From: Candidatus Woesearchaeota archaeon
GTDB lineage: Archaea; Nanobdellota; Nanobdellia; SCGC-AAA011-G17; PNOQ01
Direction: 5' to 3'
Assembly (NCBI GenBank): GCA_964408705.1
Contig: CAYPAI010000004.1
Span: 57-64,056 of the forward strand
DNA length: 64,000 nucleotides
The notes under the pieces are model-generated. The model did not search any database. It was given only the letters and a program-made list of their open reading frames with translations, and was not told the DNA's origin. A program made the position numbers and the translations under genes. Of this stretch, positions 6,693 through 59,854 are shown piece after piece (within the stretch, counting starts at the first letter, position 1; every line of letters starts with the position of its first letter).

Positions 6693-6849
6693 CTTTAGAA
6701 TCCTCTTTCTTTTGTTATTCTATTCTAAAAAAGATTATTAAAGTTTTTCTAATTATTATTGCGTAGTAACTTATCAAAAATTATCATATTTTTCAAAATA
6801 AAAAGCTTTTTAAGCTTTTTTCATAGAAATTATTGTATCGGGGGTTTAA

Positions 6850-7374: not shown

Positions 7375-7375
7375 T

Positions 7376-7939: not shown

Positions 7940-7982
7940 TATCTTCTTTGTTTAGTTTATATTTAAAATATTTTCGTATTTA

Positions 7983-9999: not shown

Positions 10000-10250
10000 T
10001 TTAAAAAATTTTAGTAAGTGATTCCTTTCTTATCATGCTCCCGCACCTTAAAAAATCTTCAGATTGTTTTTCTCTTGGAAAAACAAACACACAATCACTT
10101 ACTAAACTTATATTGGTAAAACACCAACGAAAATCTTTTGAAAGATTATGATTTTTTAATTGTTAATTGTTAATACACTTCACTATATTTATATATTTTT
10201 TTATACTCTAGTAGTTGTTTTAAAAATTAATCTGTTTATTCACAGTTATA

Positions 10251-18883: not shown

Positions 18884-20776
18884 TTGTTGTTTATACCTCT
18901 TGCATCTGCAGAGGTAGATAATTATTATGGATATTCTGAACTTATAATAGATTATGAGTTTAATACTGAAGTTGAACTTGATGGTGGTAATGATCTCGAT
19001 TATTTAAATGCTAATTTAACATTAATCCCGTTAGAGAGTTATAGGCAAGAAGTTATTAGTTTTTATCCAAATTCTAATCCAGTTTCTGAGATAGTACATG
19101 GTGATACTTTTTTAAATTATATTTGGAATGAGTATAATCCAATATTTCAGATAGGAATTGAATCTAGTATAAAATCTAAAAGTTCATTCCATAAGTTAGA
19201 TCATATTTCTTTTCCAATAATAGATTTAGATGAGAATTATCAAATGTATCTTCAAGAAGGTGAAAAGATAGATATTACTGATGATATAGTGAATAAAGCT
19301 GCAGAGATAGTTGCAGGAGAAGATGATTTGTATACTGCCGTATTCAAACTTGCAGATTGGACGAGAAATAATATTGAATATGACTTAAATTCATTAACCG
19401 CTAAAGCTGCACTAAAATCCTCATGGGTTTTAGAGAATAGGCAAGGAGTTTGCGATGAGATGACTTCATTATTTATATCTTTTTGTAGGTCTGTAGGAAT
19501 TCCTGCAAGATTTATATCTGGTACAGCTTATACTAATGTAGATTATAGTTTTGGTAATCATGGGTGGGCAGAAGTTTATTTTCCAGATCATGGATGGGTA
19601 CCATATGATGTTACTTTTGGAGAATATTCTTGGTTAAACCCTGCACATATTAGTCTTGCTAAATCTCTAGATAGTGGAGATTCTGCAATAAAATATAGTT
19701 GGATGGGAAATAATATTGATATAGAAACTACTCCTATAATTATTAATGCAGAGGTAGTTTCTGAAGGAGATTATCTTGAACCAATTTTTGATATTGATGT
19801 CGATTTTTTAGTCGATCAAGTTGCCCCTGGAAGTTATGTCCCTGTAAGAGTTTCAATAGACAATAATTTTGATAAGTATGTTACTAATACTATATTTATA
19901 ACTAAATCGCCCTCTCCCTTGGCAGTAAAGGATAATCCTAGGCCAATATTAATGAAGCCTAACCAAGAAAAGTCTTCATTTTGGACGATAAAAGTTCCAA
20001 GTGATGTTGATCCCGGGTATGTTTATACTTCTACATTTGAGGTAAAAGATATTTTTGGATCAATTTCTTCGGATACTTTAGAATTTTCTCAACAATATGA
20101 ATTGTTTACTCAAGATGAAGCTTTGTCTTTAATTGAAGGCTTAGAAGAAGAAGAGGATATGACCTATTCTGAAAATATATTTTTAGAATGTTCTTCTTCA
20201 AAAGATTATTATTATTTTTTTGAAAAAGTAAAAATAAATTGTGAGGTGCAAAATATTGGAAATACTTTAATCAGTGAACTAAGAGTTTGTTTATATGAGG
20301 AATGTGAAGATATTGATTTAAATATAGCACAAAAGAAGAATATTTTCTTTAATACCGATCCTTCTATTGGGAATTTAGCAGTCTCTGCTAAGAATTCTGA
20401 TCTTGAAGTGTATTCCTTTATAAATTTCCTAATTTTGGATTCTCCAGACTTAGAGGTATCAAATTTTGAGTTTAAAGATATTGTAAGTTATAATGATAAA
20501 CTTGATATTTCCTTTGTGTTAAGTTCTAAGGCAATAATCAATAATTTAGAAATAGTTGTTGGTGGATTGGAACCAATTAATATTGAAAAAACAAAGGAAT
20601 CAATACCTGTTTCTATAAATACAGATGCCAAATATTTTATAGATAGAGTTGATTTAGTTATAAATTATGAAGATGAATATGGTAATAAATTTTCAATTGA
20701 AGAATTTAAAAGTATAAATATAAATGATATTCCTTGGTATGCTAGATTTTTTAATTTGTTTAGAAGGATTTTTTAA
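18884..20776 (+). CDS. Secreted transglutaminase-like (Cys-His-Asp) domain protein.
   Basis: The transglutaminase-like core reads QGVCDEMTSLFISFCRSVGIPARFISG...GNHGWAEVYFPDHGWVPYDVT. An in-frame signal-peptide-like segment (KKIILLFLLFIPLASA) sits upstream of the TTG start and has no ATG. Confidence 0.75.
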   Translation: MLFIPLASAEVDNYYGYSELIIDYEFNTEVELDGGNDLDYLNANLTLIPLESYRQEVISFYPNSNPVSEIVHGDTFLNYIWNEYNPIFQIGIESSIKSKSSFHKLDHISFPIIDLDENYQMYLQEGEKIDITDDIVNKAAEIVAGEDDLYTAVFKLADWTRNNIEYDLNSLTAKAALKSSWVLENRQGVCDEMTSLFISFCRSVGIPARFISGTAYTNVDYSFGNHGWAEVYFPDHGWVPYDVTFGEYSWLNPAHISLAKSLDSGDSAIKYSWMGNNIDIETTPIIINAEVVSEGDYLEPIFDIDVDFLVDQVAPGSYVPVRVSIDNNFDKYVTNTIFITKSPSPLAVKDNPRPILMKPNQEKSSFWTIKVPSDVDPGYVYTSTFEVKDIFGSISSDTLEFSQQYELFTQDEALSLIEGLEEEEDMTYSENIFLECSSSKDYYYFFEKVKINCEVQNIGNTLISELRVCLYEECEDIDLNIAQKKNIFFNTDPSIGNLAVSAKNSDLEVYSFINFLILDSPDLEVSNFEFKDIVSYNDKLDISFVLSSKAIINNLEIVVGGLEPINIEKTKESIPVSINTDAKYFIDRVDLVINYEDEYGNKFSIEEFKSININDIPWYARFFNLFRRIF

Positions 20777-24224: not shown

Positions 24225-24782
24225 TTGATTGTTATGAAAAAGTTTAGTTTTATTTTATGTTTATTTTTGGTAAGTCTTTTATTTATTTCAAGTTGCTACG
24301 ATAGCAATGTGTTCAGGAAGAATGATGTAGCAGAATTTTGTGTAGGTGAAGGTGAATCAATAGCTATAACTCACCCAGATTATGCCGAGGATTGTTGTGA
24401 AGGTCTTGTACAAATTTCTAATAAAGATCCAGACTTTTCGGGGGCAGGTATATGTACTGGAAATTGTGGAGATGGGATATGTAATGAAGATTCAGAATCA
24501 AGTTATAATTGTGAAATAGATTGTGAATTGAATGATTCTAGAAATACTTCAGATGATGTTTTTAATGATTTTGATCAAGATGCTTCAGAGGAAGAAGTAG
24601 AATCAAATACTGAAGGCCCCAGGTGGGAAGATGTTTATGAAGATACTCAGTGTAATGGGGATGATGCAATTGCCATAATCTTTGAATTGGTTCAACAATC
24701 TGCTACTAATGAGCAGATAATGGAAGCTATGTGTGATATTAATTGTGAAGAATTGAACCCTCAAGACTATATTTGTTCTTAA
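24225..24782 (+). CDS. Secreted Cys-rich acidic lipoprotein carrying the shared 66-aa EFCVGEGES...EIDCEL module.
   Basis: The signal peptide has a lipobox (LLFISSC). Nucleotides 24331..24526 are 100% identical to 39282..39477. Confidence 0.7.
   Translation: MIVMKKFSFILCLFLVSLLFISSCYDSNVFRKNDVAEFCVGEGESIAITHPDYAEDCCEGLVQISNKDPDFSGAGICTGNCGDGICNEDSESSYNCEIDCELNDSRNTSDDVFNDFDQDASEEEVESNTEGPRWEDVYEDTQCNGDDAIAIIFELVQQSATNEQIMEAMCDINCEELNPQDYICS
24331..24526 (+). repeat. Copy 1 of a 196-bp segment that is 100% identical between two different lipoprotein genes.
   Basis: cagaattttgtgtaggtgaaggtgaatcaatagctataactcacccagattatgccgaggattgttgtgaagg... ...gtgaaatagattgtga is identical to 39282..39477. 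Confidence 0.85.
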
Positions 24783-28105: not shown

Positions 28106-28214
28106 TTGGACGAGAATGAGATAGAAATCTTGTTTATAAAATATATGTTTGATTTATTATTTTATTTTTTAAATAATGGAAAGTTATTTAAATTGTTTTT
28201 ATTATAATTTAAGT

Positions 28215-28661
28215 ATGAAAAGGGGCAATCTAGTTTTAACTTTATTTTTAATTAGTATTTTATTTATTTCTGGATGTGGTCCTGAAATGGCTCCAGGTAC
28301 AGGAAAAGATTGGGGAAATTCTGATAAAGAACAGTTTATCCCTCCTGCTCCTAAATCTTCTAGTTCTTCTTGTTATCAAGATGAAGATTGTGAAATTTAT
28401 GAGTTTTGTGATATGGATCCTGGTGCAAAGAGTGGTGAGTGTAAATATTTAACTCATTGTTATAATGATAAGCATTGTTCAAAAGATTTTTATTGTTCTA
28501 TTCCAAAAGGTGCAAAGAGTGGATTTTGTATGGAATTATACTCTCAAATCCCTAATAAAATAATGGATGATTTGGGTGGAAATTCTCCTGAACAATATTA
28601 TCCTTGTATAACTTATGGTGGATTAGACTGTGGACAGGATACTTGGGGACCAATTCTTTAG
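28215..28661 (+). CDS. Small Cys-rich lipoprotein with an internal duplicated DPGAKSGEC / PKGAKSGFC motif.
   Basis: The probable start is the internal Met, giving MKRGNLVLTLFLISILFISGCG (family leader plus lipobox). The ORF track starts 13 codons earlier, at 28176. Confidence 0.6.
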   Translation: MKRGNLVLTLFLISILFISGCGPEMAPGTGKDWGNSDKEQFIPPAPKSSSSSCYQDEDCEIYEFCDMDPGAKSGECKYLTHCYNDKHCSKDFYCSIPKGAKSGFCMELYSQIPNKIMDDLGGNSPEQYYPCITYGGLDCGQDTWGPIL

Positions 28662-35486: not shown

Positions 35487-36425
35487 ATGAAAATAAATAT
35501 TATTACTTTATTATTAATCATATTAGGTATTTTATCTTTTCAAGAGCTAGAGATTATAACTAATAGTCCTTATTTTTATTCTGATTCGGGAATTATCAAG
35601 TGTGAAGATGCTAAGATTGGAGATAGGGGTAGACTTAATGGGAATTTATATTTAGCAGTTGATGAAAAGATCCTTAGGTCTATGGATCCTGGTGAAAGGG
35701 GTGATGATTATACAACTTTTTGTGTGTCTCATGTTACAGATATGGGTTATTTGTTTTATAATGCGCATAGTTTTAATCAACCAATTGGATATTGGGATAC
35801 TAGCAATGTAGTAAATATGGGGTTTATGTTTTATAATGCAATAGATTTTAATCAACCAATTGGGTCTTGGAATACTAGTAATGTAGTTGATATGACTCAT
35901 CATTTCTATCTTGCAGAAAATTTCAATCAACCCTTAGATTCTTGGGATGTTAGTAAAGTGATAGATATGTCACGTATGTTTTCATATGCGTATAAGTTCA
36001 ATCAACCCTTAGATTCTTGGGATGTTAGTAGTTTAAAGTATATGCCTACTATGTTTGATAATGCAATAGATTTTAATCAACCAATTGGGTCTTGGAATAC
36101 TAGTAATGTGGAAAATATGGAGCTTATGTTTATGGATGCAGAAAATTTCAATCAACCAATTGGCTCTTGGGATGTTAGTGAAGTTACAACATTTCGTTAT
36201 TTATTTTATGATGCATATAACTTTAATCAACCCTTAGATTCTTGGAATACTAGTAATGTGGAAAATATGGAGCTTATGTTTGTTAATAGTTCATCTTTTA
36301 ATCAAGATTTGAGTGGGTGGAATGTAGATAAAGTTACAGATTATAGAAGATATGATTGTAATACTTTGGTTTGGGATGACAGTTATAAACCTTTTGAACC
36401 ATTTGGATGTGATGTTTTAGAATAA
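35487..36425 (+). CDS. Secreted protein built from about eight tandem 26-residue DUF285/BspA-like surface repeats.
   Basis: There is a signal peptide. The repeating unit is MF.NA..FNQPIGSWDTSNV.DM. The DNA is repetitive, with near-identical stretches of 38-60 nt. Confidence 0.75.
   Translation: MKINIITLLLIILGILSFQELEIITNSPYFYSDSGIIKCEDAKIGDRGRLNGNLYLAVDEKILRSMDPGERGDDYTTFCVSHVTDMGYLFYNAHSFNQPIGYWDTSNVVNMGFMFYNAIDFNQPIGSWNTSNVVDMTHHFYLAENFNQPLDSWDVSKVIDMSRMFSYAYKFNQPLDSWDVSSLKYMPTMFDNAIDFNQPIGSWNTSNVENMELMFMDAENFNQPIGSWDVSEVTTFRYLFYDAYNFNQPLDSWNTSNVENMELMFVNSSSFNQDLSGWNVDKVTDYRRYDCNTLVWDDSYKPFEPFGCDVLE
35760..36300 (+). repeat. Intragenic tandem repeats of about 78 bp that encode the 26-residue units.
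   Basis: ttcaatcaacccttagattcttgggatgttagta occurs at about 35925 and about 36001. tttaatcaacc...tcttggaatactagtaatgtggaaaatatggagcttatgttt occurs at about 36068 and about 36224. Confidence 0.7.
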
Positions 36426-37566: not shown

Positions 37567-37664
37567 TTTTAGTTATATTTTTATATTATGGATTATTATG
37601 AAACTTATGAAAAGAGGTATTTTGATTTTATTTTTGTTTAGTCTTTTATTTATTTCTAGTTGCG
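37567..37664 (+). repeat. Copy 1 of a roughly 98-bp promoter-proximal plus signal-peptide cassette (leader repeat).
   Basis: ttttagttatatttttatattatggattattatgaaacttatgaaaagaggtattttgattttatttttgtttagtcttttatttatttctagttgcg differs at 3 positions from 39067..39164. Confidence 0.8.
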
Positions 37665-39043
37665 ATTCTAAAATAAATTTTTTTACTAAAGAAATTACTT
37701 TAATTTGGGAAAAAGAAGTAAACACTTTTGCACATAGCTCTCCAGATTATGCTGATTTAAATAAAGATGGAGTGGAAGATGTGATCATAGTGGGAGGGAC
37801 AATTCCTTTTTTTGGAAGTTTAATTGCCTTAAATGGTGTTGATGGTTCCGTCTTATGGGAAAAACCACTACCAAATTTTTCTTCTGCAACTCCTGCTAAA
37901 CTTGAGAGCAGTGGTGATGATATCACTGATTTTGTTATTGGTATTTCCGCAGATACAAATACAGATTTAACTAGTAGAGATCCAGAATTATCAGATTTGA
38001 TTATGGTTAATGGTAAGGATGGTTCCTTATTATGGAGTTTTCGTAAACAAAATATAAATTTTACTTTTTCAGATACTCATTTTAGTTCAGCAGTTGTATT
38101 AGATGATCGTAATGAAGATGGAGTAGAAGATATAATTATATTGCAATCCGGAGGATTTGATGATATTCGTTCAGATAATCTAGGTTGGGACGATACTCAA
38201 AGGCCAACCTCATCATTATTTATTGTTTCAGGTAAAGATGGTAAAATTTTACAACAAAAAAATGTTGATGACGGAAAGGAAAGTTATGCTACCCCTGCCG
38301 TCTCTTCTAAGTTAGGGCTTATTATTTTAGGTACAGGTGGAGAAACTATCTCTGGAAATTTAATTGCTTTGGATTATTTTACATTAGAAGAAATTTGGAG
38401 AGTACCTTCTTATGGCATGGGGTTTATTTCTTCACCAGTTTTATCAGAGGATGAAAGATATGTTTTTGGAATTAGTTATAATGGGGAAATTTTTAAAATT
38501 GATGCCTTAAGAGGGAATATCATATGGAATAAAATTTGGTTTGACTCTATAGTTTATGCTTCGCCAACATTAGGTAAATTTAATGAAGATGAACATATTG
38601 ATGTAGTTGCCCTTATAAATTCAGATCGTTATTCTAATATATTTATAATAGACGGATTTAATGGTGAGATTATTTCTGAGTTTGAAAAAAGTAAAGGAAC
38701 TATTCCGACTCCACTTGTGCTAGATTATAACAATGATGGTATTGATGATTTGTTGACTTTAATGAATACTGGTTGTAGAATGGAGGGGAATGGTCCGCCT
38801 GATTGTAGTGGTTCATTACTCCAAATATGGGATGTTGGGTCTTCTAAAAAGATATTGGATATAAAGAGGTTACCTGGTTCTTTAGCTACACCATTTTTGA
38901 GAGATTTAGATAATGATAAAGAATTAGATTTATTAATAAATGTTATAGGTAAAGTCTTTAGATATGAGTTTAATTTAGATGTTGATGCAATAAATATGAC
39001 TTGGGATCATTTTCGTGGACCGTTTAGGCAAGGAAGAATATAA
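37598..39043 (+). CDS. Lipoprotein with FG-GAP/integrin-alpha-like calcium-binding beta-propeller repeats.
   Basis: The leader is MKLMKRGILILFLFSLLFISSCD. Repeats with D-x-N/D-x-DG-x-x-D loops include DLNKDGVEDVIIVGG, DDRNEDGVEDIIIL, DYNNDGIDDLLTL and DLDNDKELDLLINV. Confidence 0.7.
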   Translation: MKLMKRGILILFLFSLLFISSCDSKINFFTKEITLIWEKEVNTFAHSSPDYADLNKDGVEDVIIVGGTIPFFGSLIALNGVDGSVLWEKPLPNFSSATPAKLESSGDDITDFVIGISADTNTDLTSRDPELSDLIMVNGKDGSLLWSFRKQNINFTFSDTHFSSAVVLDDRNEDGVEDIIILQSGGFDDIRSDNLGWDDTQRPTSSLFIVSGKDGKILQQKNVDDGKESYATPAVSSKLGLIILGTGGETISGNLIALDYFTLEEIWRVPSYGMGFISSPVLSEDERYVFGISYNGEIFKIDALRGNIIWNKIWFDSIVYASPTLGKFNEDEHIDVVALINSDRYSNIFIIDGFNGEIISEFEKSKGTIPTPLVLDYNNDGIDDLLTLMNTGCRMEGNGPPDCSGSLLQIWDVGSSKKILDIKRLPGSLATPFLRDLDNDKELDLLINVIGKVFRYEFNLDVDAINMTWDHFRGPFRQGRI

Positions 39044-39066: not shown

Positions 39067-39164
39067 TTTTAGTTACATTTTTATATTATGGATTATTATG
39101 AAACTTATGAAAAGGGGTATTTTGACTTTATTTTTGTTTAGTCTTTTATTTATTTCTAGTTGCG
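39067..39164 (+). repeat. Copy 2 of the leader cassette, exactly 1500 bp downstream of copy 1.
   Basis: There are 95 identical positions out of 98. It covers the upstream AT-rich region and the first 22 codons (MKLMKRGIL.LFLFSLLFISSC). Confidence 0.8.
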
Positions 39165-40291
39165 GAGTTTGTACTAAGGAAGGTAAGGTGTGTGAGGATG
39201 GTACAGTTGTTGGAAGAGAAGGTCCTGATTGTGAGTTTGCAGAATGCCCTGATTTAGTAGAACTTCAAGAAGAAGTTGAACCAGAATTTTGTGTAGGTGA
39301 AGGTGAATCAATAGCTATAACTCACCCAGATTATGCCGAGGATTGTTGTGAAGGTCTTGTACAAATTTCTAATAAAGATCCAGACTTTTCGGGGGCAGGT
39401 ATATGTACTGGAAATTGTGGAGATGGGATATGTAATGAAGATTCAGAATCAAGTTATAATTGTGAAATAGATTGTGAGTTAGAACCAACGGAATATAATC
39501 TTGATCTAACTATGAAAGATCTTCCAGAAGGATATCAAGAAATAGAAGAATATTTGCCAAAATATGGCGAAGTTTTTGGGGTTCATTTTTTTGCTAGTAA
39601 TAAAGTTTCAGATGCAAAATTAATTTATGCAATGAATATAATGGCAGAATATTTAGATAATGATAAAGATGGATCGCCTGATAATCCTTTAGTTGTAGAT
39701 AGGATGGTTTCAGATAAAGTTGGTATGATGATGTTTGAAGACGAAGACGAAGACGAAGATTCCGAGTTATGGGAATCAGATTTAGAGATTATAGGTTTGG
39801 ATAACTTACAAGGATTATATGAAGATGAAACAAACCCATCTGGATCTAGATTTGATGCAAGTTTAGAAGAGATATTACACTTAATTACTCAAAGAGGTTA
39901 TGCAGAAGTATATCCAGAAATATTTGGAGAATTTTCAGGATCAACTGTTGCAAATTTAATGGACGAAGCAAGAGGTGGACATTTTGAGGAAGGTACAAAT
40001 TGGGATGAAGATAGTGGGGAAGGAGATAGTGCAGTTCCAAATTCTTATCCATCTGAATCTTGGTATCATTATGATGATGAAACATGTGACTATGCTTGTA
40101 TGATCACAGAGTATGTATATTGGTCGCTCACTTCTATCCTTGGAGCACAAGAAAATAGATGTTCAGACATAGATCATGAATGGGAGTTATGTACTAAAGA
40201 AAAAGTTCAAGAAAAAGATTCTGGAATATATAATCTTTTAACAGATCCACAGTATAAATTTGCAACTATTATTCCTGATGGATCATATTAA
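39098..40291 (+). CDS. Secreted Cys-rich acidic lipoprotein carrying the shared 66-aa EFCVGEGES...EIDCEL module.
   Basis: The leader MKLMKRGILTLFLFSLLFISSCG is nearly identical to that of the upstream gene. Nucleotides 39282..39477 are identical to 24331..24526. Confidence 0.7.
   Translation: MKLMKRGILTLFLFSLLFISSCGVCTKEGKVCEDGTVVGREGPDCEFAECPDLVELQEEVEPEFCVGEGESIAITHPDYAEDCCEGLVQISNKDPDFSGAGICTGNCGDGICNEDSESSYNCEIDCELEPTEYNLDLTMKDLPEGYQEIEEYLPKYGEVFGVHFFASNKVSDAKLIYAMNIMAEYLDNDKDGSPDNPLVVDRMVSDKVGMMMFEDEDEDEDSELWESDLEIIGLDNLQGLYEDETNPSGSRFDASLEEILHLITQRGYAEVYPEIFGEFSGSTVANLMDEARGGHFEEGTNWDEDSGEGDSAVPNSYPSESWYHYDDETCDYACMITEYVYWSLTSILGAQENRCSDIDHEWELCTKEKVQEKDSGIYNLLTDPQYKFATIIPDGSY
39282..39477 (+). 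repeat. Copy 2 of the 196-bp identical segment.
   Basis: It matches 24331..24526 base for base. The flanking sequence diverges immediately on both sides. Confidence 0.85.
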
Positions 40292-42646: not shown

Positions 42647-42690
42647 TAGAGATAGCCTTATATAATGATATTATATAAATACTTATTATT

Positions 42691-43158
42691 ATGAAAAAAA
42701 GAGGAATTTCTCCATTGATAGCTACTGTTCTTTTAATAGGTATGACTATAATGGTTTCAGTTATTGTTTTTACTTTTGTTAGAACAACTATCGAGGATAA
42801 AACTAGTGAAACTGAAATGCAAAGTAATATTCTTTTGGCATGTTCTCAAACTTTAGATCTCGAATATAATGATCCTATTATTTGTGGGGCTGATCAAAAC
42901 TTAATAGTTACAGTGTGGAATAGAAGTCCGATAGATGTAGTTGATCTTAAAATACAAGTTGTTTCCAATCAAGATTCAATGTTATTTGAGAGTGGAGTTT
43001 TAAATTCTTACAATAAAGAGTTATATGATATTGATCTTTCTTTCGGGGTGGGAGATATTAGTAGTATAATTTTAATTCCTACATTAGAGTTAGGTGATTC
43101 AGAGGGTACTTGTCCAGGAGAAGTTATAAACATTAATGATATCTTACCTTGTAATTAG
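42691..43158 (+). CDS. Archaeal type IV pilin-like protein with a class III signal peptide.
   Basis: The N-terminus MKKRG|ISPLIATVLLIGMTIMVSVIVF matches the canonical Pilin_N leader. This is [KR]G followed by hydrophobic residues, with cleavage after G by prepilin peptidase. The mature domain is small, about 150 aa. Confidence 0.7.
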   Translation: MKKRGISPLIATVLLIGMTIMVSVIVFTFVRTTIEDKTSETEMQSNILLACSQTLDLEYNDPIICGADQNLIVTVWNRSPIDVVDLKIQVVSNQDSMLFESGVLNSYNKELYDIDLSFGVGDISSIILIPTLELGDSEGTCPGEVININDILPCN

Positions 43159-43199
43159 CGAAATTTTTATAAATGATTAGATTATTAATATGAATTATT

Positions 43200-46100
43200 A
43201 TGGATTTTAAAAAGAGTGGTCTATTTAGTTTTATAGTTTTAGTATTATTGTTTATTTCTGGTTGTGTTCCTCAATTTAATGCAGAAGATTATGCTCAACT
43301 CTCTGATGAATCCAAATTAGTTGTTAATAAATATTTTAGTGGTACTAGGGAAGTTGTTTGTGGACCTTGGGAATTTCACCAATCATGTGGAGAAGATAGT
43401 TACTGTGCAAGTAGTACCGGAGATTTAGATAAGTCAAGATTTAGAAGAGAATGTTGGAATACTGGCGGAGGCGGAGGCGGAGTTCCATGTCTATCTTGGC
43501 CAGATGGTCCTTGTAATGTACCTTTAAGTCCGATGGTAAACTCTGATGATGTTTTTTATGAAGAAGGTGATGATTTTATAGTTGTTAAAAGTAAGTCAGT
43601 TATGGAAGAACTTAGCTCATTATTTAATAAATATGGTGGAGTTAAATTAGCTCCAGTTAGATCTAAATCTGAGGTAGGTAAACATATTAAAGGAAATAGA
43701 GATCTTAGTAATGTTGAAAAGAAGCCATTACGTCCTAAACCTTTAGAAAGTAGGACATGGTATCAATATAAGTGTGAGACGGATTCTTTATGTACTAACA
43801 CTTGTGGTGATGGACGTTTAAATAATTTAAATAATGCTGCAGGAGGAGATTTAGGTTGTACTTCTGCGACTTCATTTAGCAATGGTCAAGAAGAAGAAAT
43901 ATATTTTAGTTCTTATCCAAATTGGGAAACTAACTCTCATGAAACTAGGGATAGGGGACAATGTTCTAATCTTTTTGGGCAAGGCGGTTCGTGGATTAAT
44001 GATAATGGGTTATGTACTGGGGAAAGTGATGGTGTATATGATTTTAATTTAGATGCTCCTGGTGTTTGGGTAGATGGAGATGGTGATGCTTATGCACAAA
44101 TGATTAATCCACATTATTATAATATATATGGTGAAATGGGTTATTGGACAAATTATTTCTTTTGTGGTAGTCAAGATAGTTTTTGTTATATTAATCTAGG
44201 TGGTGCTGCTCATTCAGAAGAAGGGACATTAACTATGAACAATGGTTTGGTTCTTAATCACTTTGTATATGTTGGTGATCATTATTGTCAAGGATGGGCA
44301 GATGGTGAAGTTTGGGTAGCTTGTAGTGAAGGTGAGGATGAATGTTATGAAGGTACCATAGATTATTCTCCTTATCATAATAGTGTGTTGGGTATTCCTG
44401 ACCAAGAAGGTTGGTTCACTTTTAATGATTTTGAGACAGTTAGTGCAGATTATTATGGTTCTAATGAATGGCAAGATGGTACTGTTGAGACTGCTTATGG
44501 TTACGGTTGGGTCGATGGAGAAGGAATTTTCCAACATGATTGTGCCAAAGGTCCTTTAGATTGTGATGCTGGTGGAGACTCTAGAGTTGAAGATTGTGAT
44601 TTAGGCACTCATCATAGTGATGCATATGGTAATATTGATTGGTATGATTCTGTACTTGATGATGCAGATGATTCTAATTCTAATTGTGATTATGGTGATC
44701 ACACCGAAGTATGTGCAGGATGGAAATATACTGGAGATTGGGGAGATTGTACAGGTGCTATACCAGGTACTGAGCCTGCAGGTGCTCTTTGTAATGATGG
44801 TTATGATAATGATTGTGATGGTTATGGAGATAGTTTTGATACGGAATGTGGATCATGTTTAGAAACTCAAGGAGGAGGTACTGAAACTGAAGTAAATGGA
44901 GATTATCAACAATGTGGAACTAATGAAGGATTGTGTGAGTTTGGAACACAATATAGGAGTTGTGTATTTGGTACTGGAGTTTCAGGAGATGGTTTATGGT
45001 CTTGGGAATCTGATTGGGGAGACTGTGGTGATGGTGCTTTAGGTGATTATGTTGGAGAAGCTTGTGAAGATGCTATTGATTGTCCTTCAAGTTGTGCTGA
45101 TGGGGTAGATAATAATTGTGACGGATTAGTAGATGGTGCTGATCCTCTTTGTGATGCTGATTGTTTATATGGAGTTGATTCTGATCAAACTCAAGCTTGT
45201 GGTTATGATTATGAAGTTGATGATGTAACTTCTGAGGAGACTACTGATGGAAATTGGGATAATGGAGTATGTATAACTGGTAGTCAAAGTAGATCTTGTC
45301 AAGTAGATGGTACTTGGGCTAATTGGGGTGCTTGTAGTCATACTGGTCCAGATGGTGCTGAGAATTCTGCAGCAGGAAATTGTGATGATGGTTATGATAA
45401 TGATTGTGATGGTACTGGTGATGATGGAGAATCTGGAGAAGATTGTGGAGAATGTTTAGAAGGTAGTTTATTTTATTTCACTAATGGTGATGATGATATT
45501 TGTGAAGAATCTTGGTGGGTAGGTGATCAATGTTCAGCAGGAACATTTACTTCTACTTGTACTTTTGATGGATCTGTGGGTGGTTATTTCTATCCTACAT
45601 GGGTTTCTAGTCCTTTTGACGGAAATTGGGAAGATTGTGAGTATGAAGATGGACCTGTAGATGAAATTTGTTGGAATGGGTTAGATGATGACTGTGATGG
45701 AATTCCAGATAGTGAAGAGGAAGTATGTGACTCTTTTGGTATTGAGTTCTTGAATGTTCCTTCGTTTAGTAATGAACAAGGAGATGAATCTTCAATTACA
45801 TTGTTTAATGATCAACCATTTATTATTAGTAGTTTTATGGAAACTGGAAGCCCTTCAAATATTAATAGTTTAGCTTATGCTAAATATGTTGGAGAGGGTG
45901 GAAATTGTGGTTACGAAGGAGAATATGGTCAGTCAGTTACTTATGATTTTCAATGTGGATTTATTCAAAGAGGTACTCCTGGATTTATTTTTGATTCTAT
46001 AGTTGGTCAACAAAACTCAATAGTTTCAGATTCTAATGGGGTTTATGCGGCTTATTCTAATTGGCTACCAGATGATGGGAATTACAAATTTAAGTTTGCT

Positions 46101-47039
46101 CAGTATTGTGGAGATGGTGCATGTACTGGTAATTGTGGTTACCAATCTACAGGAGAAACTGGTGCACCTGGTCCGTTAGATTATACTTGGAGATGTGAAG
46201 TTGCTTCAGGAAATAATATAAATCAAATGCATGACCCTAAATTAATTGCTACTGGAAGCGATTTTTATTTGATGTATTCTTCATATCCTGGAAATGTTAT
46301 TAATGTTAATAAAAGGGAAAGCGAGGGTGATTGGACAAATTATGCATTAACTATTGCTAGTGCTAGTCAAAATATTATGTGGATTTCTCCAGAGTATTCT
46401 GCAGACGAAGAAAAGATATATTTTGCTTATGCTACAGTAGATAGTGGTTGGGCTTATAGAATTTATTATAGTTATGTTGATGTGTCATCTGGAGTAGTAA
46501 TACAGGATAATATAGATGAAGTGTCTAGTTTTTCTGATGATGGAACAATAATAGATCAGAGTTTAAGTCAACTTGATACAGCCTTGGATGATAATTGTAA
46601 TGACGGTGATGTAGGAATTTGTACTATGCATGTTGTTAATATGTATAAGACGGAAGATTATTCTTTTAGTATAAACTATAATAAAGCTAATGTTGGCCAA
46701 GCTAGTTCAGATAATCCTACTTTTTCAGAAGTAGATGTTTCTAGTTTGAATGGATATGGTTTTGGAGAAAGTCCTTCAATAGATATAGATAGTATGGGTA
46801 ATGCTCATTTGATTTCTGCAGCAAGAATTAGTGATACTCCAAAATATGCTGTTCAGCTTGATGATGGATCTTTTGAAGTTATAAATTATGAATCTGGTAG
46901 CTTCTTTACTAAAGGCCATACATCACTTATTCTTGATAGTACTAATAGGGCTCATTTATTATATTTAGTCGATCATAACTCATTAAATGAAAACATTCAA
47001 ACAGATTGGAGAGTTAGATATGCTTCTCATTTAGTCTAA
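43200..47039 (+). CDS. Giant secreted Cys-rich acidic lipoprotein (1279 aa) with repeated CxDGxDNDCDG metal/Ca-binding-like motifs.
   Basis: The leader ...IVLVLLFISGCVPQ has a lipobox. There is a Gly6-VPCLSWPDGPCNVPLSP motif. Four CNDGYDNDCDG / CADGVDNNCDG / CDDGYDNDCDG / CWNGLDDDCDG repeats are present. The N-terminal 400 aa are paralogous to the next gene. Confidence 0.85.
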   Translation: MDFKKSGLFSFIVLVLLFISGCVPQFNAEDYAQLSDESKLVVNKYFSGTREVVCGPWEFHQSCGEDSYCASSTGDLDKSRFRRECWNTGGGGGGVPCLSWPDGPCNVPLSPMVNSDDVFYEEGDDFIVVKSKSVMEELSSLFNKYGGVKLAPVRSKSEVGKHIKGNRDLSNVEKKPLRPKPLESRTWYQYKCETDSLCTNTCGDGRLNNLNNAAGGDLGCTSATSFSNGQEEEIYFSSYPNWETNSHETRDRGQCSNLFGQGGSWINDNGLCTGESDGVYDFNLDAPGVWVDGDGDAYAQMINPHYYNIYGEMGYWTNYFFCGSQDSFCYINLGGAAHSEEGTLTMNNGLVLNHFVYVGDHYCQGWADGEVWVACSEGEDECYEGTIDYSPYHNSVLGIPDQEGWFTFNDFETVSADYYGSNEWQDGTVETAYGYGWVDGEGIFQHDCAKGPLDCDAGGDSRVEDCDLGTHHSDAYGNIDWYDSVLDDADDSNSNCDYGDHTEVCAGWKYTGDWGDCTGAIPGTEPAGALCNDGYDNDCDGYGDSFDTECGSCLETQGGGTETEVNGDYQQCGTNEGLCEFGTQYRSCVFGTGVSGDGLWSWESDWGDCGDGALGDYVGEACEDAIDCPSSCADGVDNNCDGLVDGADPLCDADCLYGVDSDQTQACGYDYEVDDVTSEETTDGNWDNGVCITGSQSRSCQVDGTWANWGACSHTGPDGAENSAAGNCDDGYDNDCDGTGDDGESGEDCGECLEGSLFYFTNGDDDICEESWWVGDQCSAGTFTSTCTFDGSVGGYFYPTWVSSPFDGNWEDCEYEDGPVDEICWNGLDDDCDGIPDSEEEVCDSFGIEFLNVPSFSNEQGDESSITLFNDQPFIISSFMETGSPSNINSLAYAKYVGEGGNCGYEGEYGQSVTYDFQCGFIQRGTPGFIFDSIVGQQNSIVSDSNGVYAAYSNWLPDDGNYKFKFAQYCGDGACTGNCGYQSTGETGAPGPLDYTWRCEVASGNNINQMHDPKLIATGSDFYLMYSSYPGNVINVNKRESEGDWTNYALTIASASQNIMWISPEYSADEEKIYFAYATVDSGWAYRIYYSYVDVSSGVVIQDNIDEVSSFSDDGTIIDQSLSQLDTALDDNCNDGDVGICTMHVVNMYKTEDYSFSINYNKANVGQASSDNPTFSEVDVSSLNGYGFGESPSIDIDSMGNAHLISAARISDTPKYAVQLDDGSFEVINYESGSFFTKGHTSLILDSTNRAHLLYLVDHNSLNENIQTDWRVRYASHLV

Positions 47040-47077
47040 ATAAAAAAAGATATAAATAAGTGCTTCTAATTATTATT

Positions 47078-48904
47078 ATGTTTAAAAAATATGTCTTAAT
47101 ATCTCTATTTTTATTAGTTTTAATATTTGGTTCAACAATTTCTTTTGCTAAATCTAGGGATGACTATGGTGATCAAGATAGAATGAAGAATGAGGAATAT
47201 GAATCTGTTAGATCTAAAGTTGTAAAATTGATAAATGAGCAGTTTTTACAAAAACAAATTGATATGATAGTTATTAAGGATCCTAGTTCTTCTTTCCATA
47301 GATCAGTATGGTATGATGTTGGTTGTTCTTCTGGTACTGCTTATGAAGGTAATCTTTGTGCTGTCGGTCAACTTAGACAAATTTATGCAGAATGTTTGAA
47401 TAATGATCATTGTGGAGGAAGTGAGCCTTATTGTAAACTTAGTGGTTGTAATGATTATTCATGTGTAGAATGTCAGTCGGGTGCAGATTGTGAAAGTAAT
47501 GAGTATTGTAATCATTGTGGTACTTGTGCTGTGGCAGGAGGGGGTGGAGGAGTTCCATGTATACCTTGGCCAGAGGGTCCTTGTAATGTACCTTTAAGTC
47601 CCAAAAAAGGAGATAGTTATGTTAAACATATGATTGATCAATACTTTTTTACTGCTAATTCTTTATCAGAGTCTTTATTTTATTCAACATTAAAAGAAGT
47701 CAAATATAATCTTGATCGAGATCTTACAAATAAATCTCCTCGTGCCTCTTATCAATGTGTAGCGAGTGATAGTTGTGCAACTTGTGCAGATCTTTTAGAT
47801 AATGATTATTCGTCAACCCAAGATTGTGAATCTGCTGGGTGTGGTTATGATGATTGTGATAATAGTAGATATGATTTTGATAGACACGATAGAGATAGGA
47901 TGCAGTGTAGTAACTTTTTTGGAGAAAGCGGACAAGTTGCAGTTTTAAATGGGGTATGTGAAGGACAAACTCCGATAGGGGGGATTGTTCTTAGTGGAGA
48001 TCTTCCTTGTAACCCTCATGAAGGTTATGTTAGAATTTCGAATGCACATCCAGATTATGCGACTTATTTTTCAGGAGGAAATATTCCTTCTTTGGAAAAT
48101 TTAAATTATAACTTTTGTGGAAATTTGTATACAGATTGTTGTGTGGATATTAATCAGCCCGATTGGAGCGAGGATGGATCTCTTGGTGATCAAATTTTTT
48201 ATAATTATTGTGGGGATAATTATTGTCAAGGATGGTTAGATTCTTCAGATAATACTGTTTGTAGAGGTCCTTTCCATGATAATCCCAGCGGGGATTGTTA
48301 TGCAGATAGTAGTTGGAACCTTTGTGAAGATTCTCCTGAACTGTGTAGTTGGGATGGAGGTATTGCAGATATAAGAGAAACTCCTGAGTCTTGTTCTTGG
48401 ATAGATCATGCAAGTAATGTTTATTCTGATTGTCGTACTGGTTGTATACAATATGATGAACATGGTTTTGCAACTTCATTTGAGTGTGATTCAGCTATAC
48501 AATCAGATTGTACTATTCTTAACGCTGAATCTTGTCCAGATGGTTCAAATAAGGTTCAAGGTTTAACAATCAGTAGTGCAACAAATGGTCATTTAAGTGA
48601 AGAAGGATATGACTGGATTGTATGTTGTGATCCTAATTTATATACTGTTTCAACTTCAGGTACTTACGAGATGTTATCCTTATCAGGAGATTCAACAAAT
48701 TCTCATTTTGGTGTTTTTGGTACCACAGATTATATTAATTACTATATCGAAGGGTCAGGTATAAGTTCTGGTTGTCAAATTGTAGATCATGATGCTTGTA
48801 ATAATGAGGATGATTTTTGTTTTGTTTCAATTAGCGGTGAAGACAATGCCCATGTTGCAGATTGTATTCAAGAGGGGTATAGTTATAAATTGTGTTGTAG
48901 TTAA
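47078..48904 (+). CDS. Secreted Cys-rich protein that is a paralog of the N-terminal part of the giant upstream gene.
   Basis: The signal peptide is MFKKYVLISLFLLVLIFGSTISFA|KS. The ORF track starts 6 codons earlier, at 47060. It shares GGGGGVPCIPWPEGPCNVPLSP, DRMQCSNFFGESG and YCQGWLD blocks with 43200..47039. Confidence 0.8.
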   Translation: MFKKYVLISLFLLVLIFGSTISFAKSRDDYGDQDRMKNEEYESVRSKVVKLINEQFLQKQIDMIVIKDPSSSFHRSVWYDVGCSSGTAYEGNLCAVGQLRQIYAECLNNDHCGGSEPYCKLSGCNDYSCVECQSGADCESNEYCNHCGTCAVAGGGGGVPCIPWPEGPCNVPLSPKKGDSYVKHMIDQYFFTANSLSESLFYSTLKEVKYNLDRDLTNKSPRASYQCVASDSCATCADLLDNDYSSTQDCESAGCGYDDCDNSRYDFDRHDRDRMQCSNFFGESGQVAVLNGVCEGQTPIGGIVLSGDLPCNPHEGYVRISNAHPDYATYFSGGNIPSLENLNYNFCGNLYTDCCVDINQPDWSEDGSLGDQIFYNYCGDNYCQGWLDSSDNTVCRGPFHDNPSGDCYADSSWNLCEDSPELCSWDGGIADIRETPESCSWIDHASNVYSDCRTGCIQYDEHGFATSFECDSAIQSDCTILNAESCPDGSNKVQGLTISSATNGHLSEEGYDWIVCCDPNLYTVSTSGTYEMLSLSGDSTNSHFGVFGTTDYINYYIEGSGISSGCQIVDHDACNNEDDFCFVSISGEDNAHVADCIQEGYSYKLCCS

Positions 48905-48946
48905 ATTAGAAAGTTATATAAATGAAAATTTGTGAAATATAATATT

Positions 48947-50176
48947 ATGGAAAAAAGAGGAATTTCTCCATTGATAGCCACTATTTTACTTATTGGGTTA
49001 GTAGTAGTTATTGCTTTATTTGTATTTAATTGGATTGGTTCTGTTATTGATTCTCAAACTTCATCTACAGATGATTTAATGGAAACTTATATGACTGATC
49101 TTAGTTTTGATTTTGAGTGTCAAAATGATATAGATTTATCTGAAATTTATATAATGTTTAGTAATAACTATCATGGACCAATAGATTCATTTTTATTGTT
49201 GTATAATGATAGTACTATGTTATCCTTAGATGGTATTTTTTCACTTGAACCATATCAATCTGCTAGCTATACTGTAGTAAGTAAGAATAGTCAGTTTATA
49301 GAAGCTATACCATTAATTGAGATTAATGGAGAACTTCAATCTATTAATCATAAAAAAGTTTTGAGAACTTGTACAGACGTTGGTGCTCCTGTTGCATGTA
49401 GTGATGGGCTAGATAATGATGGTGATGGTTATTCAGATTTAGATGATCCTGATTGTGAAGGTGATTCTGAAGGTGAAGTAGAAGGTGGAACAATTTCTTT
49501 CAGTAGTTGTGATGATGAAAATCTAGATGATTTTTTTGATGATGGATATCCTTTTGTGTTAATGGATAACATAGATGATGTTGATGGAGATTGTTTAGTA
49601 TTTCAAAATATAGATGAAGGAATTACTATTGATTGCGAAGGTCATTATATTCATGGAGGTAATGATGTTGATTCTCAATATGGTATTTATATTTATAATT
49701 CAGATTATTTTGAGTTTAGGGATTGTGAAATAAGTGGTTTTGAGTATGGTATTGCTCTTCAAGAAGGTTCTGATTATAATATTTTTGAAGATATATCTTT
49801 GACTAACAATTGGGGCCAGGGTCAAGGTACTGGTTTGTTTTTTGGTGTACCTATGGGATTCGACCAGAATAATTATAATACTTTTAGAGATATTCTGATT
49901 GAAGATGGTTATTCTGGTTTTAAGTATAATGATGATGCTTTTGGATTTAATCCTTTTAATTTAGGTAATGAATTCATAAATATTCAGTTTGGTGATCACG
50001 AGGGTACTTCATTTTGGTGTTTAGGGAATACCCCTATCGATCTTGCTTCGGCTGCTACAGGGTTTGGAGTAGGATTAGATAGTGGAGATATATTTTGCGG
50101 AACTTCCGCTTGTCTTCAGACTTGCTATGAATCTTTAGGTCTTGATTTTGTAGGCTTAGGTTGTAGCGCATGTTAG
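48947..50176 (+). CDS. Type IV pilin-like protein with a class III signal peptide, fused to a Ca-binding-like CSDGLDNDGDGYSD motif and a parallel beta-helix-like C-terminal domain.
   Basis: The leader MEKRG|ISPLIATILLIGLVVVIALFVF is nearly identical to that of 42691. The ORF track begins 5 codons earlier, at 48932. The C-terminal region has repeating beta-helix-like rungs (GIYIYNSDYFEFRDCEISGFEYGIALQEGSDYNIFEDISLTNN). Confidence 0.7.
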   Translation: MEKRGISPLIATILLIGLVVVIALFVFNWIGSVIDSQTSSTDDLMETYMTDLSFDFECQNDIDLSEIYIMFSNNYHGPIDSFLLLYNDSTMLSLDGIFSLEPYQSASYTVVSKNSQFIEAIPLIEINGELQSINHKKVLRTCTDVGAPVACSDGLDNDGDGYSDLDDPDCEGDSEGEVEGGTISFSSCDDENLDDFFDDGYPFVLMDNIDDVDGDCLVFQNIDEGITIDCEGHYIHGGNDVDSQYGIYIYNSDYFEFRDCEISGFEYGIALQEGSDYNIFEDISLTNNWGQGQGTGLFFGVPMGFDQNNYNTFRDILIEDGYSGFKYNDDAFGFNPFNLGNEFINIQFGDHEGTSFWCLGNTPIDLASAATGFGVGLDSGDIFCGTSACLQTCYESLGLDFVGLGCSAC

Positions 50177-52079: not shown

Positions 52080-53024
52080 ATGGAAAGGAGAGGTTTTATA
52101 ATTTTTTTAGGAATAATGTTTTTTTTCTTGTTTATTTCTACATTTAATCAAGATTTTGAATATCATATAACTGGTGCAGCAGAGATTACTTCAAAGAATG
52201 ACCAAGATATAGAAGATGAATTTTATAATGAGAAAGATGGTTTTGATGTTTCTATTCCTGATGAAGAATTATTAGCCCAAAAAGAACAAGCATATACTGA
52301 AAGAGTTAATTTTATTGGATCTGGAAGTAAGAATTCTGCAGATTATTATAGAGTACTGGAAAATGGAATTAATATAGAGTATTCTCCTGGAGATAATAAG
52401 TTTCTAAGAGTTTATAGTCCTTCTAATGAAGTTCTTAAAGATTTTGAACCACTTGAAGATATAAAAGTTATAGAATTAGAAGAAGATAAAGTTGAGATTG
52501 GGGTTTATGAAATTCAAGAGATAGAGAAGGATAGGGTTTTATCTAGGGATTATTTTTTTGTAACTTCTCCGGAAGGAGATTTAACAAAGGAAGAAATTGA
52601 AAAAATGTATAATATTAAACAAGAAGATATAGTTAAGGAATATGGTTTAGAAGAAGATATTTCTAGTTATTTATTAGGTAAGCTTGCTAATGCTGAAGTT
52701 ATTAAAAATACTCTTTCAAGTAGAGATGTTGGAAAGTTTAGAGGTGTTCTTGAGTTTGATAAAGATCAAATATCTATACTTGATAGTGTTGATATCTTAA
52801 GTAAAACTGATGATGTTTATTATTCTCCTTTTGAAGGAGATGATTTAGTTAAAACATTTGTTAAAAAAATTGATTTGGATTCTTCTGTAAAATTTTCACC
52901 TAATCAGAAAATGTTAGCTAGTTTTGGAATTTATTTTTCAGATAAACTCGAGTTAGGAGCTGAGTATAGTAAGATAAATCTTTTAGTAGTTAATGAAGAA
53001 CCTAAGATTGGGTTGGAATTTTAA
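52080..53024 (+). CDS. Hypothetical protein with an N-terminal hydrophobic anchor. The MERRG|FIIF start could also fit a class III signal pattern.
   Basis: 314-aa ORF with the N-terminus MERRGFIIFLGIMFFFLFIS. The rest is acidic. Confidence 0.45.
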   Translation: MERRGFIIFLGIMFFFLFISTFNQDFEYHITGAAEITSKNDQDIEDEFYNEKDGFDVSIPDEELLAQKEQAYTERVNFIGSGSKNSADYYRVLENGINIEYSPGDNKFLRVYSPSNEVLKDFEPLEDIKVIELEEDKVEIGVYEIQEIEKDRVLSRDYFFVTSPEGDLTKEEIEKMYNIKQEDIVKEYGLEEDISSYLLGKLANAEVIKNTLSSRDVGKFRGVLEFDKDQISILDSVDILSKTDDVYYSPFEGDDLVKTFVKKIDLDSSVKFSPNQKMLASFGIYFSDKLELGAEYSKINLLVVNEEPKIGLEF

Positions 53025-59023: not shown

Positions 59024-59854
59024 TTATATTAATAATCCTAATAAATAACCTATAAATATCCCTGCACCTATGAATGGCATTGCAGGATAGAATTTATTTT
59101 TTTTACTAAAAGTTAAAAGTCCTAAAAGGGCTAAAGCAGAAAATATTGCGATTAATGATGCATCTAAGAATCCAGTTTCTCTTAAAATTACTCCTGCAAA
59201 TAGCATCGGGAAACCTATATCTCCGCCTCCAAGTATTGCTGTTTTTGTAAATATTTTTTCTTTTTTCTTTGTTTTTTTATTAGTTATTATCTTTCTAGCA
59301 TAGGGTATTGCTAGTCCTGCAAATACTTTTGCCTTTGCTTGGAATTTGGCTAATTTTATCATATGTTTTGTTTTCCAAACTGCTATTGCGTCATATACCA
59401 TAATGATTAGTAAAAGAATACTTATTGAAAAAATACTTAAAATTGGAACAAATAATGAAGCTATTCCTGCATAGACAAATAGTTCAATAATATTATGGGA
59501 GATAATGCTTGGTCTAAAATATCTTAAGGATATAAAAGCTATTGAACTGATTAATGCGGCTTCTTGATTTATAAATGCTCCAAGAGATATAGTTAATAGG
59601 TATAAAGATGCTAATAAAAACCATATCTTCCATATTCTTTCTGCTCCAAAATTTATCAAGAGTAATGCAAGTCCTGTTGCAATTATTATTGCTATAGCCA
59701 TTGGCATATAACTTGTATCTTCTTGAATTTCAGGACTTTCTATACCAAAAGGTAATTCTTTTTCAAAGTAAGAATCAATTACATATAGTCCTATAAATTG
59801 TGCAACTAAAAATAAGCCAACAATTATTAATGAAACTTTTATATTATGCTTCAT
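59024..59854 (-). CDS. Presenilin/signal-peptide-peptidase-like intramembrane aspartyl protease (archaeal PSH, family A22).
   Basis: It has about nine TM helices. The YD motif is IIMVYDAIAV and the GxGD motif is LGGGDIGFP. A PAL-like segment YPAMPF follows. The motifs are in presenilin-like order and spacing. Confidence 0.65.
   Translation of the reverse strand: MKHNIKVSLIIVGLFLVAQFIGLYVIDSYFEKELPFGIESPEIQEDTSYMPMAIAIIIATGLALLLINFGAERIWKIWFLLASLYLLTISLGAFINQEAALISSIAFISLRYFRPSIISHNIIELFVYAGIASLFVPILSIFSISILLLIIMVYDAIAVWKTKHMIKLAKFQAKAKVFAGLAIPYARKIITNKKTKKKEKIFTKTAILGGGDIGFPMLFAGVILRETGFLDASLIAIFSALALLGLLTFSKKNKFYPAMPFIGAGIFIGYLLGLLI

Follow-up and report, generated by a model that had tools for sequence, protein, structure and literature searches.

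The question raised by the locus at 42691–50176 of a 64 000 nt stretch of Candidatus Woesearchaeota archaeon contig CAYPAI010000004.1 (this whole stretch is referred to here as the window) is whether two type IV pilin-like genes and the two genes for large, cysteine-rich exported proteins that lie between them belong together, and what they would do at the cell surface. The reading we favour, to which we give a probability of roughly 0.55, is that they form a conserved, rapidly diversifying cassette for surface adhesion or glycan recognition in marine Woesearchaeota-type DPANN archaea, arranged around a modular pilin. The gene content of related loci indicates that the core of this cassette is B-C-D, with the small pilin gene A a frequent fourth member. 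The genes are as follows.

42691–43158, + strand: gene A, 155 aa, type IV pilin-like protein
43200–47039, + strand: gene B, 1279 aa, acidic lipobox protein with 61 Cys
47078–48904, + strand: gene C, 608 aa, secreted paralog of B with 46 Cys
48947–50176, + strand: gene D, 409 aa, predicted modular pilin

As the preliminary description of this DNA stated, the four open reading frames (ORFs) are co-oriented and closely spaced, with gaps of 41 nt (A–B), 38 nt (B–C) and 42 nt (C–D). Two start codons were revised. C begins at the ATG at 47078 rather than at the listed GTG at 47060, and the resulting 608 aa protein was also called independently on four metagenome contigs. D begins at the ATG at 48947, not at the listed GTG at 48932. 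A source organism of DPANN type had been suggested, and it is of Woesearchaeota type. The locus DNA is found in marine metagenome contigs (JGI 3300008954, SUTE22-1 series, Logan) with at least 99.96 % identity, and the loci designated L001 to L004 represent the population of the window itself (≥99.96 % identical). The GC content of the cassette genes is 0.33–0.37 compared with about 0.28. Horizontal acquisition was considered as the reason for the raised GC, but the Gly-, Cys- and Asp-rich composition of the proteins is a simpler explanation, as other Cys-rich genes are shifted in the same way.

A pattern search and exact look-up yielded related loci, in which the genes are conserved as a unit. 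All four are present in the same order in L007, a contig of a Candidatus Woesearchaeota archaeon metagenome-assembled genome (MAG), where genes for an RsmB-type methyltransferase and an NTP-transferase follow, and in L010, from a second species in the same samples, where RsmB follows. L006 contains an orthologue of C (43 % identical) and then an orthologue of D. In L009, on a 197 kb metagenome contig, B-C-D lie beside genes for seryl-tRNA synthetase and topoisomerase, and L013 (GCA_018652475.1) is a relative of L009. No other class III signal gene was found within 10 kb on either side of the L009 cassette. Because B-C-D stay together in this independent context, functional linkage is indicated rather than an inherited neighbourhood. 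Both the B and the C proteins of L009 are without a lipobox, so that cassette encodes no membrane anchor other than the pilin-type helix of D. In all loci open to inspection, the B/C-family genes had a D-type gene beside them. A more distant protein that combines pilin, MopE and beta-helix parts (P0006) has no B/C-like neighbour on its short contig.

The amino acid identities of the cassette proteins and of the products of flanking genes are listed here for the two loci that contain all four genes.

Window compared with L007: A 54 %, B 26 %, C 34 %, D 34 %; flanking O-methyltransferase 78 %, RsmB 82 %, NTP-transferase 75 %
Window compared with L010: A 46 %, B 27 %, C 32 %, D 40 %; five flanking downstream housekeeping genes 64–88 %, O-methyltransferase 72 %

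In pairwise comparisons, the cassette diverges far faster than the surrounding genes, as its proteins share 26–54 % identity and the housekeeping flanks share 64–88 %, a range that includes all of the flanking genes compared (RsmB, NTP-transferase, CCA enzyme, proteasome, CPSF and O-methyltransferase). Orthologues elsewhere are similarly distant, with B 26–27 % identical in L009, and C 26 % identical in L009 and 43 % in P0013. The lengths of the orthologues are about 1100–1300 aa for B and about 460–610 aa for C.

Both pilin-like proteins have at their N-terminus a class III signal peptide exactly as first described, with basic residues, a Gly before the cleavage site (marked by an arrow) and then a hydrophobic stretch. 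The leader of A is MKKRG↓ISPLIATVLLIG (also read as MKKRG↓ISPLIATVLLIGMTIMVSVIVFTFV) and that of D is MEKRG↓ISPLIATILLIG (also read as MEKRG↓ISPLIATILLIGLVVVIALFVFNWI). A regular-expression scan of the 64 kb in six frames found class III-type leaders in A and D only, and both exceed the cutoff of 20 bits for the archaellin/type IV pilin N-terminal domain in NCBIfam (TIGR02537), with 29.7 bits for A and 29.8 bits for D. The two proteins are 50 % identical, and this identity is confined to the first 42 residues. Beyond it, A has a small globular part that contains Cys (4 Cys in the whole protein), and gives weak phmmer matches to the solved archaeal pilins 8fj5 and 8fk7. The parts distinguished in D are listed next.

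aa 1–50: class III signal and N-terminal helix
aa 54–139: beta-sandwich head
aa 151–174: acidic CSDGLDNDGDGYSDLDDPDC repeat
aa ~205–350, followed by a Cys-rich tail: right-handed parallel beta-helix

These parts correspond to the AlphaFold2 model of D, which has a 43-residue N-terminal helix (residues 8–50), strands at 54–139, a disordered acidic linker and a beta-helix at about 205–350. A profile of the D family matched archaeal pilus subunits in the PDB (8fk7, E 8e-4; 9myg, 7txi and 8rey), and the top Foldseek match to the model was the type IV pilus subunit of Pyrobaculum calidifontis, 8fk7_A (E 4e-3, probability 1.0, TM-target 0.53), with 8fj5_A at rank 10. The Ca-binding-like acidic motif and the parallel beta-helix that had been noticed in D are both present, the former as one CxDGxDNDCDG-type motif at aa 151. 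The latter agrees with the modelled fold and matches the Pfam family Beta_helix (PF13229) with 35.6 bits, above the cutoff of 25.9; it is closest in fold to polysaccharide lyases and depolymerases, with an identity of only 9–15 %. On these matches, D is best described as a predicted modular pilin, in which a pilin module is joined by an acidic disulfide repeat to a beta-helix of the pectin-lyase fold.

The features identified in B are listed below.

43200–43265, + strand: signal peptide with lipobox …LLFISG-C22, read from the sequence
43463–43535, + strand: Gly6-VPCLSWPDGPCNVPLSP hinge block, gene-conversion tract common with C
43485–44600, + strand: N-terminal Cys-rich domain common with C, signature (Y/F)xGDx(Y/L)CQG(W/F), from BLASTP and alignments
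44790–45734, + strand: four repeats of about 96 aa, each ending CxDGxDNDCDG; MopE-type, acidic and apparently disulfide-stapled
45777–47036, + strand: C-terminal domain of about 420 aa with recurring …(L/I)DSxxxxH(L/I)xY…(K/R)YA… units, from alignment and motif recurrence

The lipobox of B, LFISG-C22, fits the pattern [LVI][ASTVI][GAS]C, and lipidation is predicted from it. The four repeats had been likened to thrombospondin (TSP) type-3 and MopE motifs. All four are present (motifs at aa 531, 632, 728 and 824), and four stretches of the excised region aa 501–860 pass PF11617 with 28.2 bits against a cutoff of 27, so that the MopE part of this comparison stands; a TSP type-3 identity was rejected, as no TSP_3 match was found on the excised region even at E≤10. 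We therefore treat the repeats as a putative metal-binding motif of the PF11617/MopE type. D and the L009 orthologue of C contain single copies of the same type of acidic repeat. However, these repeats are one module of B, and the long pure repeat arrays in P0019 and P0021 belong to different proteins. Searches of Pfam, NCBIfam and PDB sequences, including a profile search against the PDB, returned no match for the C-terminal 420 residues of B. Its repeat motifs, together with Asp-boxes in the L009 orthologue, suggest that this domain is beta-propeller-like. That orthologue (5978–9328) contains the Asp-boxes SIDDGQTW and STNGGTSW at aa 834 and 1009 in its C-terminal domain, which hint at a sialidase-like propeller, and the same domain has a faint match to a beta-propeller alpha-L-rhamnosidase. 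The B family is small. When residues 80–1279 were used as query in an exhaustive HMMER search of 1.84 billion representative sequences, 17 proteins were found at E≤1e-3 and four at E≤1e-30.

C was previously taken for a second lipoprotein of about 609 aa. The paralogy with B was supported (BLASTP, 27 % identity over ~390 aa, E 5e-17), the length was corrected to 608 aa, and C was found to have a plain Sec signal, leaving B as the lipobox protein of the pair in the window. The C orthologues in L007 and L010 do carry a lipobox (…ISSC). Two further features were located in C.

Start of 47078–48904, + strand: Sec-type signal peptide MFKKYVLISLFLLVLIFGSTISFA↓KS (…STISFA↓KS), without a lipobox Cys
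48515–48901, + strand: C-terminal domain of about 130 aa with three …S..(T/D)N(A/G/S)H…Y.Y… repeats, ending YSYKLCCS, from alignment

The C-terminal domain is the best-kept part of C, and N591, A592, H593, Y602, Y604, K605, C607 and C608 are invariant across four lineages. It has no match in Pfam, NCBIfam or the PDB, and the search of PDB sequences with a C-family profile was also empty. Likewise, nothing in Pfam, NCBIfam or PDB sequences matched the Cys-rich domain common to B and C. Neither protein, whole or in segments, matched a PilY1/PilC family in Pfam or NCBIfam, and a scan of viral contigs for the B/C signature found none.

Within the common domain, the block Gly5-6-VPC(L/I)xWP(D/E)GPCNVPLSP is present at aa 89 of B and also in C, as previously noticed, and the identical run of 26 nt reported there occurs exactly twice, at 43506 and 47576. 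The 26-mer is part of a 70 nt stretch with 90 % identity, the C copy of which is at 47532–47601. As 90 % DNA identity over 70 nt contrasts with 27 % identity between the proteins, this is a signature of gene conversion rather than chance. In L007, the tract is much longer, with 369 nt of the B and C orthologues 97.8 % identical (5877–6245 and 9703–10071) and the proteins otherwise strongly diverged. Both tracts cover a Cys-rich segment, at the end of which are the Gly-run and the Pro-rich hinge. The pattern points to B and C exchanging sequence by local gene conversion. A match of a similar kind was seen elsewhere in the window, between two otherwise different lipoprotein genes, where 222 nt (24312–24532 and 39264–39484) are 96.8 % identical and code for a Cys-rich module of about 74 aa (EFCVGEGESIAITHPDYAEDCCEGL…) that the two products have in common. 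The match suggests that surface lipoproteins exchange modules or undergo gene conversion, by the process seen between B and C.

Of the findings above, we regard as established which domains the proteins contain, their export signals, the synteny, the pattern of divergence and the gene conversion. Since the cassette outpaces its housekeeping neighbours and B and C show conversion, a determinant of host or ligand specificity would fit these data.

Elements resembling archaeal promoters were found ahead of each of the four genes.

42658–42690, + strand: promoter-like region of A, with TATA-like TTATATAA at 42658–42665 and TTATATAAAT at 42671–42680, before the ATG at 42691
43166–43174, + strand: TATA-like box TTTATAAAT, 26–34 nt before the ATG of B
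47049–47058, + strand: TATA-like box GATATAAATA, 20–29 nt before the ATG of C
48914–48923, + strand: TATA-like box TTATATAAAT, 24–33 nt before the ATG of D

The upstream box of A was also read as TTATATAA(T), and the boxes of all four genes are approximately 20–34 nt before the ATG. A TATA-box at such a distance is expected for leaderless archaeal mRNAs, and about half of the genes in the window have a TATA-like box there. The DNA of A and D is 84.5 % identical over 71 nt in a self-BLAST comparison (42658–42726 and 48914–48982), a match that spans the TATA-like box, the 33 nt before the ATG and the leader codons. One possible origin is the duplication of a unit of promoter plus leader, and the two genes may be co-regulated. 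A scan for sigma-70 promoters and terminators gave counts equal to those of shuffled sequences, and the bacterial models used are uninformative for an archaeon.

The favoured mechanism can be outlined as follows. A and D would be cut by a PibD-type peptidase encoded elsewhere in the genome, and their hydrophobic helices would keep them in the membrane or allow them to join a short type IV filament, with the bulk of D limiting it to the tip or to a non-polymerised position. B and C would be exported by the Sec route and then retained at the surface, by a lipid anchor if they have a lipobox and otherwise, as in L009, probably by contact with D. Acting jointly, the cassette proteins may attach to glycans or other structures on the surface of a partner cell, a host cell or a substrate, which they perhaps also cut. 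A physical complex, an adhesion role, glycan activity and a filament are all inferred.

Several observations weigh against the adhesion or glycan-recognition cassette. First, the most distant cassette, L009, has no A, and the adjacency in L007 and L010 could in part reflect shared ancestry, which leaves L009 (with L013) as the independent context. Second, no type IV filament (TFF) ATPase, platform or prepilin peptidase gene was present among 36 window ORFs scanned with Pfam or in a precomputed Pfam list for 35–57 kb, as the preliminary description had also reported, and with no pilus machinery gene in the window a filament is unsupported here. Third, Pfam Pilin_N (PF07790) gave 19.9 bits for A and 19.5 bits for D (E ~1e-3), less than the gathering score of 25.2, so that of the two leader models TIGR02537 is passed by both proteins and Pilin_N by neither; a homologue (P0003) does have a precomputed PF07790 match. 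The acidic repeats likewise fall below the NF033662 cutoff of 41 bits, with 16.3 for B and 30.2 for D (16–30 bits overall). Of the structural models, that of D is moderate (pLDDT 57.6 on average, about 65–80 in the two folded modules and about 65–75 in the pilin module) and that of C is unusable (pLDDT 32, from a 7-row alignment). Catalytic residues were not identified in the beta-helix of D, for which no search for CAZy signatures was made. No pilin would be needed to keep B at the membrane here, or B and C in L007 and L010, since their lipid anchors would suffice for that. Finally, co-transcription is doubtful because every cassette gene has its own TATA-like box, and separate transcription of the four genes may be at least as likely as an operon, although TATA-box evidence is weak in a genome of 28 % GC.

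The claim that no system of this type had been described was too strong, as modular pilins, ComZ, CofB–CofJ and archaeal class III beta-helical proteins precede it. In bacteria, the grafting of modules onto pilins is widespread, as in Streptococcus sanguinis PilB, which is a pilin with a von Willebrand factor A (vWA) module (PMC8179133), and Thermus ComZ is a pilin with a beta-solenoid, argued to sit at the tip (PMC6561018). D resembles both in that a small pilin module with its class III signal carries a bulky grafted module, which would imply a tip or non-polymerised place and binding of an external ligand. As in ComZ, the grafted module is a beta-solenoid or beta-helix. D differs from both in its archaeal leader and in its head, which matches archaeal type IV pilus subunits; there is no sequence homology. 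Moreover, an acidic Cys repeat connects the pilin head of D to the beta-helix behind it, while the module of ComZ is inserted within the head, and the beta-helix belongs to the pectin-lyase/CASH type (PF13229) and is neither a DNA receptor nor a vWA module. No pilus machinery or major pilin was identified with D.

Precedents for partner proteins are also available. In enterotoxigenic Escherichia coli, the tip minor pilin CofB recruits CofJ, a secreted adhesin of the same operon (PMC6048534), and TcpB–TcpF of Vibrio cholerae is likewise a minor-pilin tip with a secreted partner (PMC9565799, PMC10120004). The minor pilins of Pseudomonas and Neisseria similarly present a separate adhesin, PilY1 or PilC. 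The cassette shares with PilY1, CofJ and TcpF the adjacency of pilin-like genes to genes for large exported non-pilin proteins, and a logic of anchor and partner adhesin is proposed for it. The predicted propeller-like C-terminal domain of B and its acidic Ca-binding-like motifs are further points of similarity to PilY1. However, B and C are outside the PilY1/PilC families, B is a lipobox protein and the cassette lies outside a pilus operon. In addition, the domain common to B and C and the C-terminal domain of C match nothing described.

With these precedents in mind, the cassette could instead encode a true pilus tip complex, in which A and D are minor or tip pilins, the machinery is encoded elsewhere, and D, together with A, primes the filament and presents B, C or both as adhesins at its tip. 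Both A and D resemble pilins, D is too large to fit into a filament body, like ComZ and PilB, for which a place at the tip has been argued (PMC6561018, PMC8179133), and the docking of secreted partners on tip pilins is documented (PMC6048534). The linkage of B, C and D across differing genomic contexts is also in keeping with a complex, as is L009, where B and C are anchor-less and D is the sole anchoring subunit, and the common acidic repeats could provide Ca-dependent contacts. Nevertheless, we consider a tip complex rather unlikely. The assembly genes are not nearby, a major pilin candidate could not be distinguished, A is dispensable in L009 and there is no PilY1/PilC family match. Because B has a lipid-anchor signal, its riding on a pilus tip is disfavoured, and B in the window, like the B and C proteins of L007 and L010, would be membrane-tethered rather than at a distal tip. 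A more ambitious form of the same idea, in which D (with A) caps or forms a short filament and docks B and C via the acidic repeats to make a DPANN host-capture organelle, is a long shot. If true, the capture tip would combine a depolymerase-like beta-helix, which removes or recognises glycans of the host surface, with Cys-rich adhesins whose hypervariability determines the range of hosts, and it would be an archaeal counterpart of the CofB–CofJ and minor pilin–PilY1 tips from an entirely new protein family.

A survey of archaeal TFFs reports C-terminal domains of class III-signal proteins that extend to ‘long beta-helical structures’, and PilY-like adhesins in TFF loci (bioRxiv 10.64898/2026.04.22.720090). 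Class III-signal proteins, including beta-helical ones, are read there as substrate-binding parts of bindosomes, and it is from this angle that a glycan-harvesting set similar to a bindosome or a polysaccharide utilization locus has to be weighed, with D as an anchored lyase or binder and B and C as accessory glycan exoproteins for nutrient scavenging. The likeness of the D beta-helix to polysaccharide lyases and depolymerases, and the Asp-boxes and faint rhamnosidase-propeller match of the L009 B protein, would suit such a role, and D shares with bindosome proteins a class III signal and hydrophobic helix ahead of an extracellular domain and a location away from TFF loci. Nutrient scavenging seems unlikely all the same, since genes for ABC transporters, sugar metabolism or other carbohydrate-active enzymes flank no locus, no catalytic motif was identified, and extreme divergence with conversion is typical of recognition or antigenic proteins and less so of catabolic enzymes. 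The sugar-binding bindosomes of Sulfolobales differ further, as D has no solute-binding protein (SBP) domain, the flanks of all loci lack an ABC transporter, the partners are giant Cys-rich proteins and the lineage is DPANN.

That the four are independent adjacent envelope or coat proteins, with an inherited adjacency and a class III signal that is merely a membrane anchor, is very improbable even though at least seven proteins of the window, several of which are giant and rich in Cys, have a lipobox, a promoter-like element precedes every cassette gene, the architecturally similar P0006 stands alone and S-layer and coat proteins also diverge fast, for L009 retains B-C-D where all neighbours differ, B and C have no relatives among the window's other giant lipoproteins, both class III genes of the 64 kb abut B/C, and the pairing of B/C-family and D-type genes holds at each locus inspected; were it correct, the present account would be merely the description of a surface-gene island.

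The remainder of the window encodes aminoacyl-tRNA synthetases, helicases, proteasome, CPSF and similar proteins among the Pfam-scanned ORFs, together with further candidates for export. At least seven proteins, B included, have near-identical lipobox signals (…LFLFSLLFISSC or …LFISGC). The other lipobox genes are at 10280–12754, 13343–16840, 24225–24782, 28176–28661, 37598–39043 and 39098–40291, and several of these lipobox proteins are giant, acidic and Cys-rich without a family match; the 37598–39043 product has an FG-GAP/PQQ-like beta-propeller. The genes at 10280–12754 and 13343–16840 were considered as second cassettes and rejected, as they are related to B and C by their signal peptides only, and the 160 aa gene between them has no class III leader. 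The gene at 35487–36425 encodes a DUF285 (Mycoplasma/BspA-type) repeat protein (PF03382, E 8e-127), likely a surface protein, and contains internal DNA repeats of about 210 nt with 74–81 % identity. A 630 aa protein with a transglutaminase-like core (PF01841, E 2.6e-26) is encoded at 18884–20776; no signal peptide is evident at its listed TTG start, and it may be envelope-associated. Downstream of the cassette, 52080–53024 encodes a 314 aa protein without a family match, whose N-terminus has a hydrophobic signal or anchor and which is 32 % identical to its L010 orthologue where its neighbours are 64–88 % identical, and is apparently another fast-evolving exported protein. On the − strand, 59024–59854 encodes a presenilin-type signal-peptide peptidase (PF06550, 64.9 bits), an intramembrane aspartyl protease that is no prepilin peptidase of the PibD/FlaK type.

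To our knowledge, little has been learned of the means by which DPANN archaea recognise and hold partner cells, and hardly any marine Woesearchaeota have been cultured. In ultrasmall Saccharibacteria, type IV pili are reported to drive episymbiosis (PMC11623550). That lineage also has a small genome and pilin genes that are candidates for host recognition and binding. However, the system is bacterial, genetically tested and has its full machinery, while the proteins described here are putative substrates known from their genes alone. The cassette offers concrete conserved candidates for host or substrate recognition in DPANN archaea. What is new is a DPANN modular pilin with a lyase- or tailspike-like beta-helix, together with a pair of paralogs from a very rare family; the underlying logic is known. 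Two uncharacterised domains are defined, one by its GDxYCQGW signature and the other by a triple repeat, TNAH…YxYKxCC, and the modular-pilin idea, documented in bacteria, is extended to an archaeal lineage with a new set of partners.

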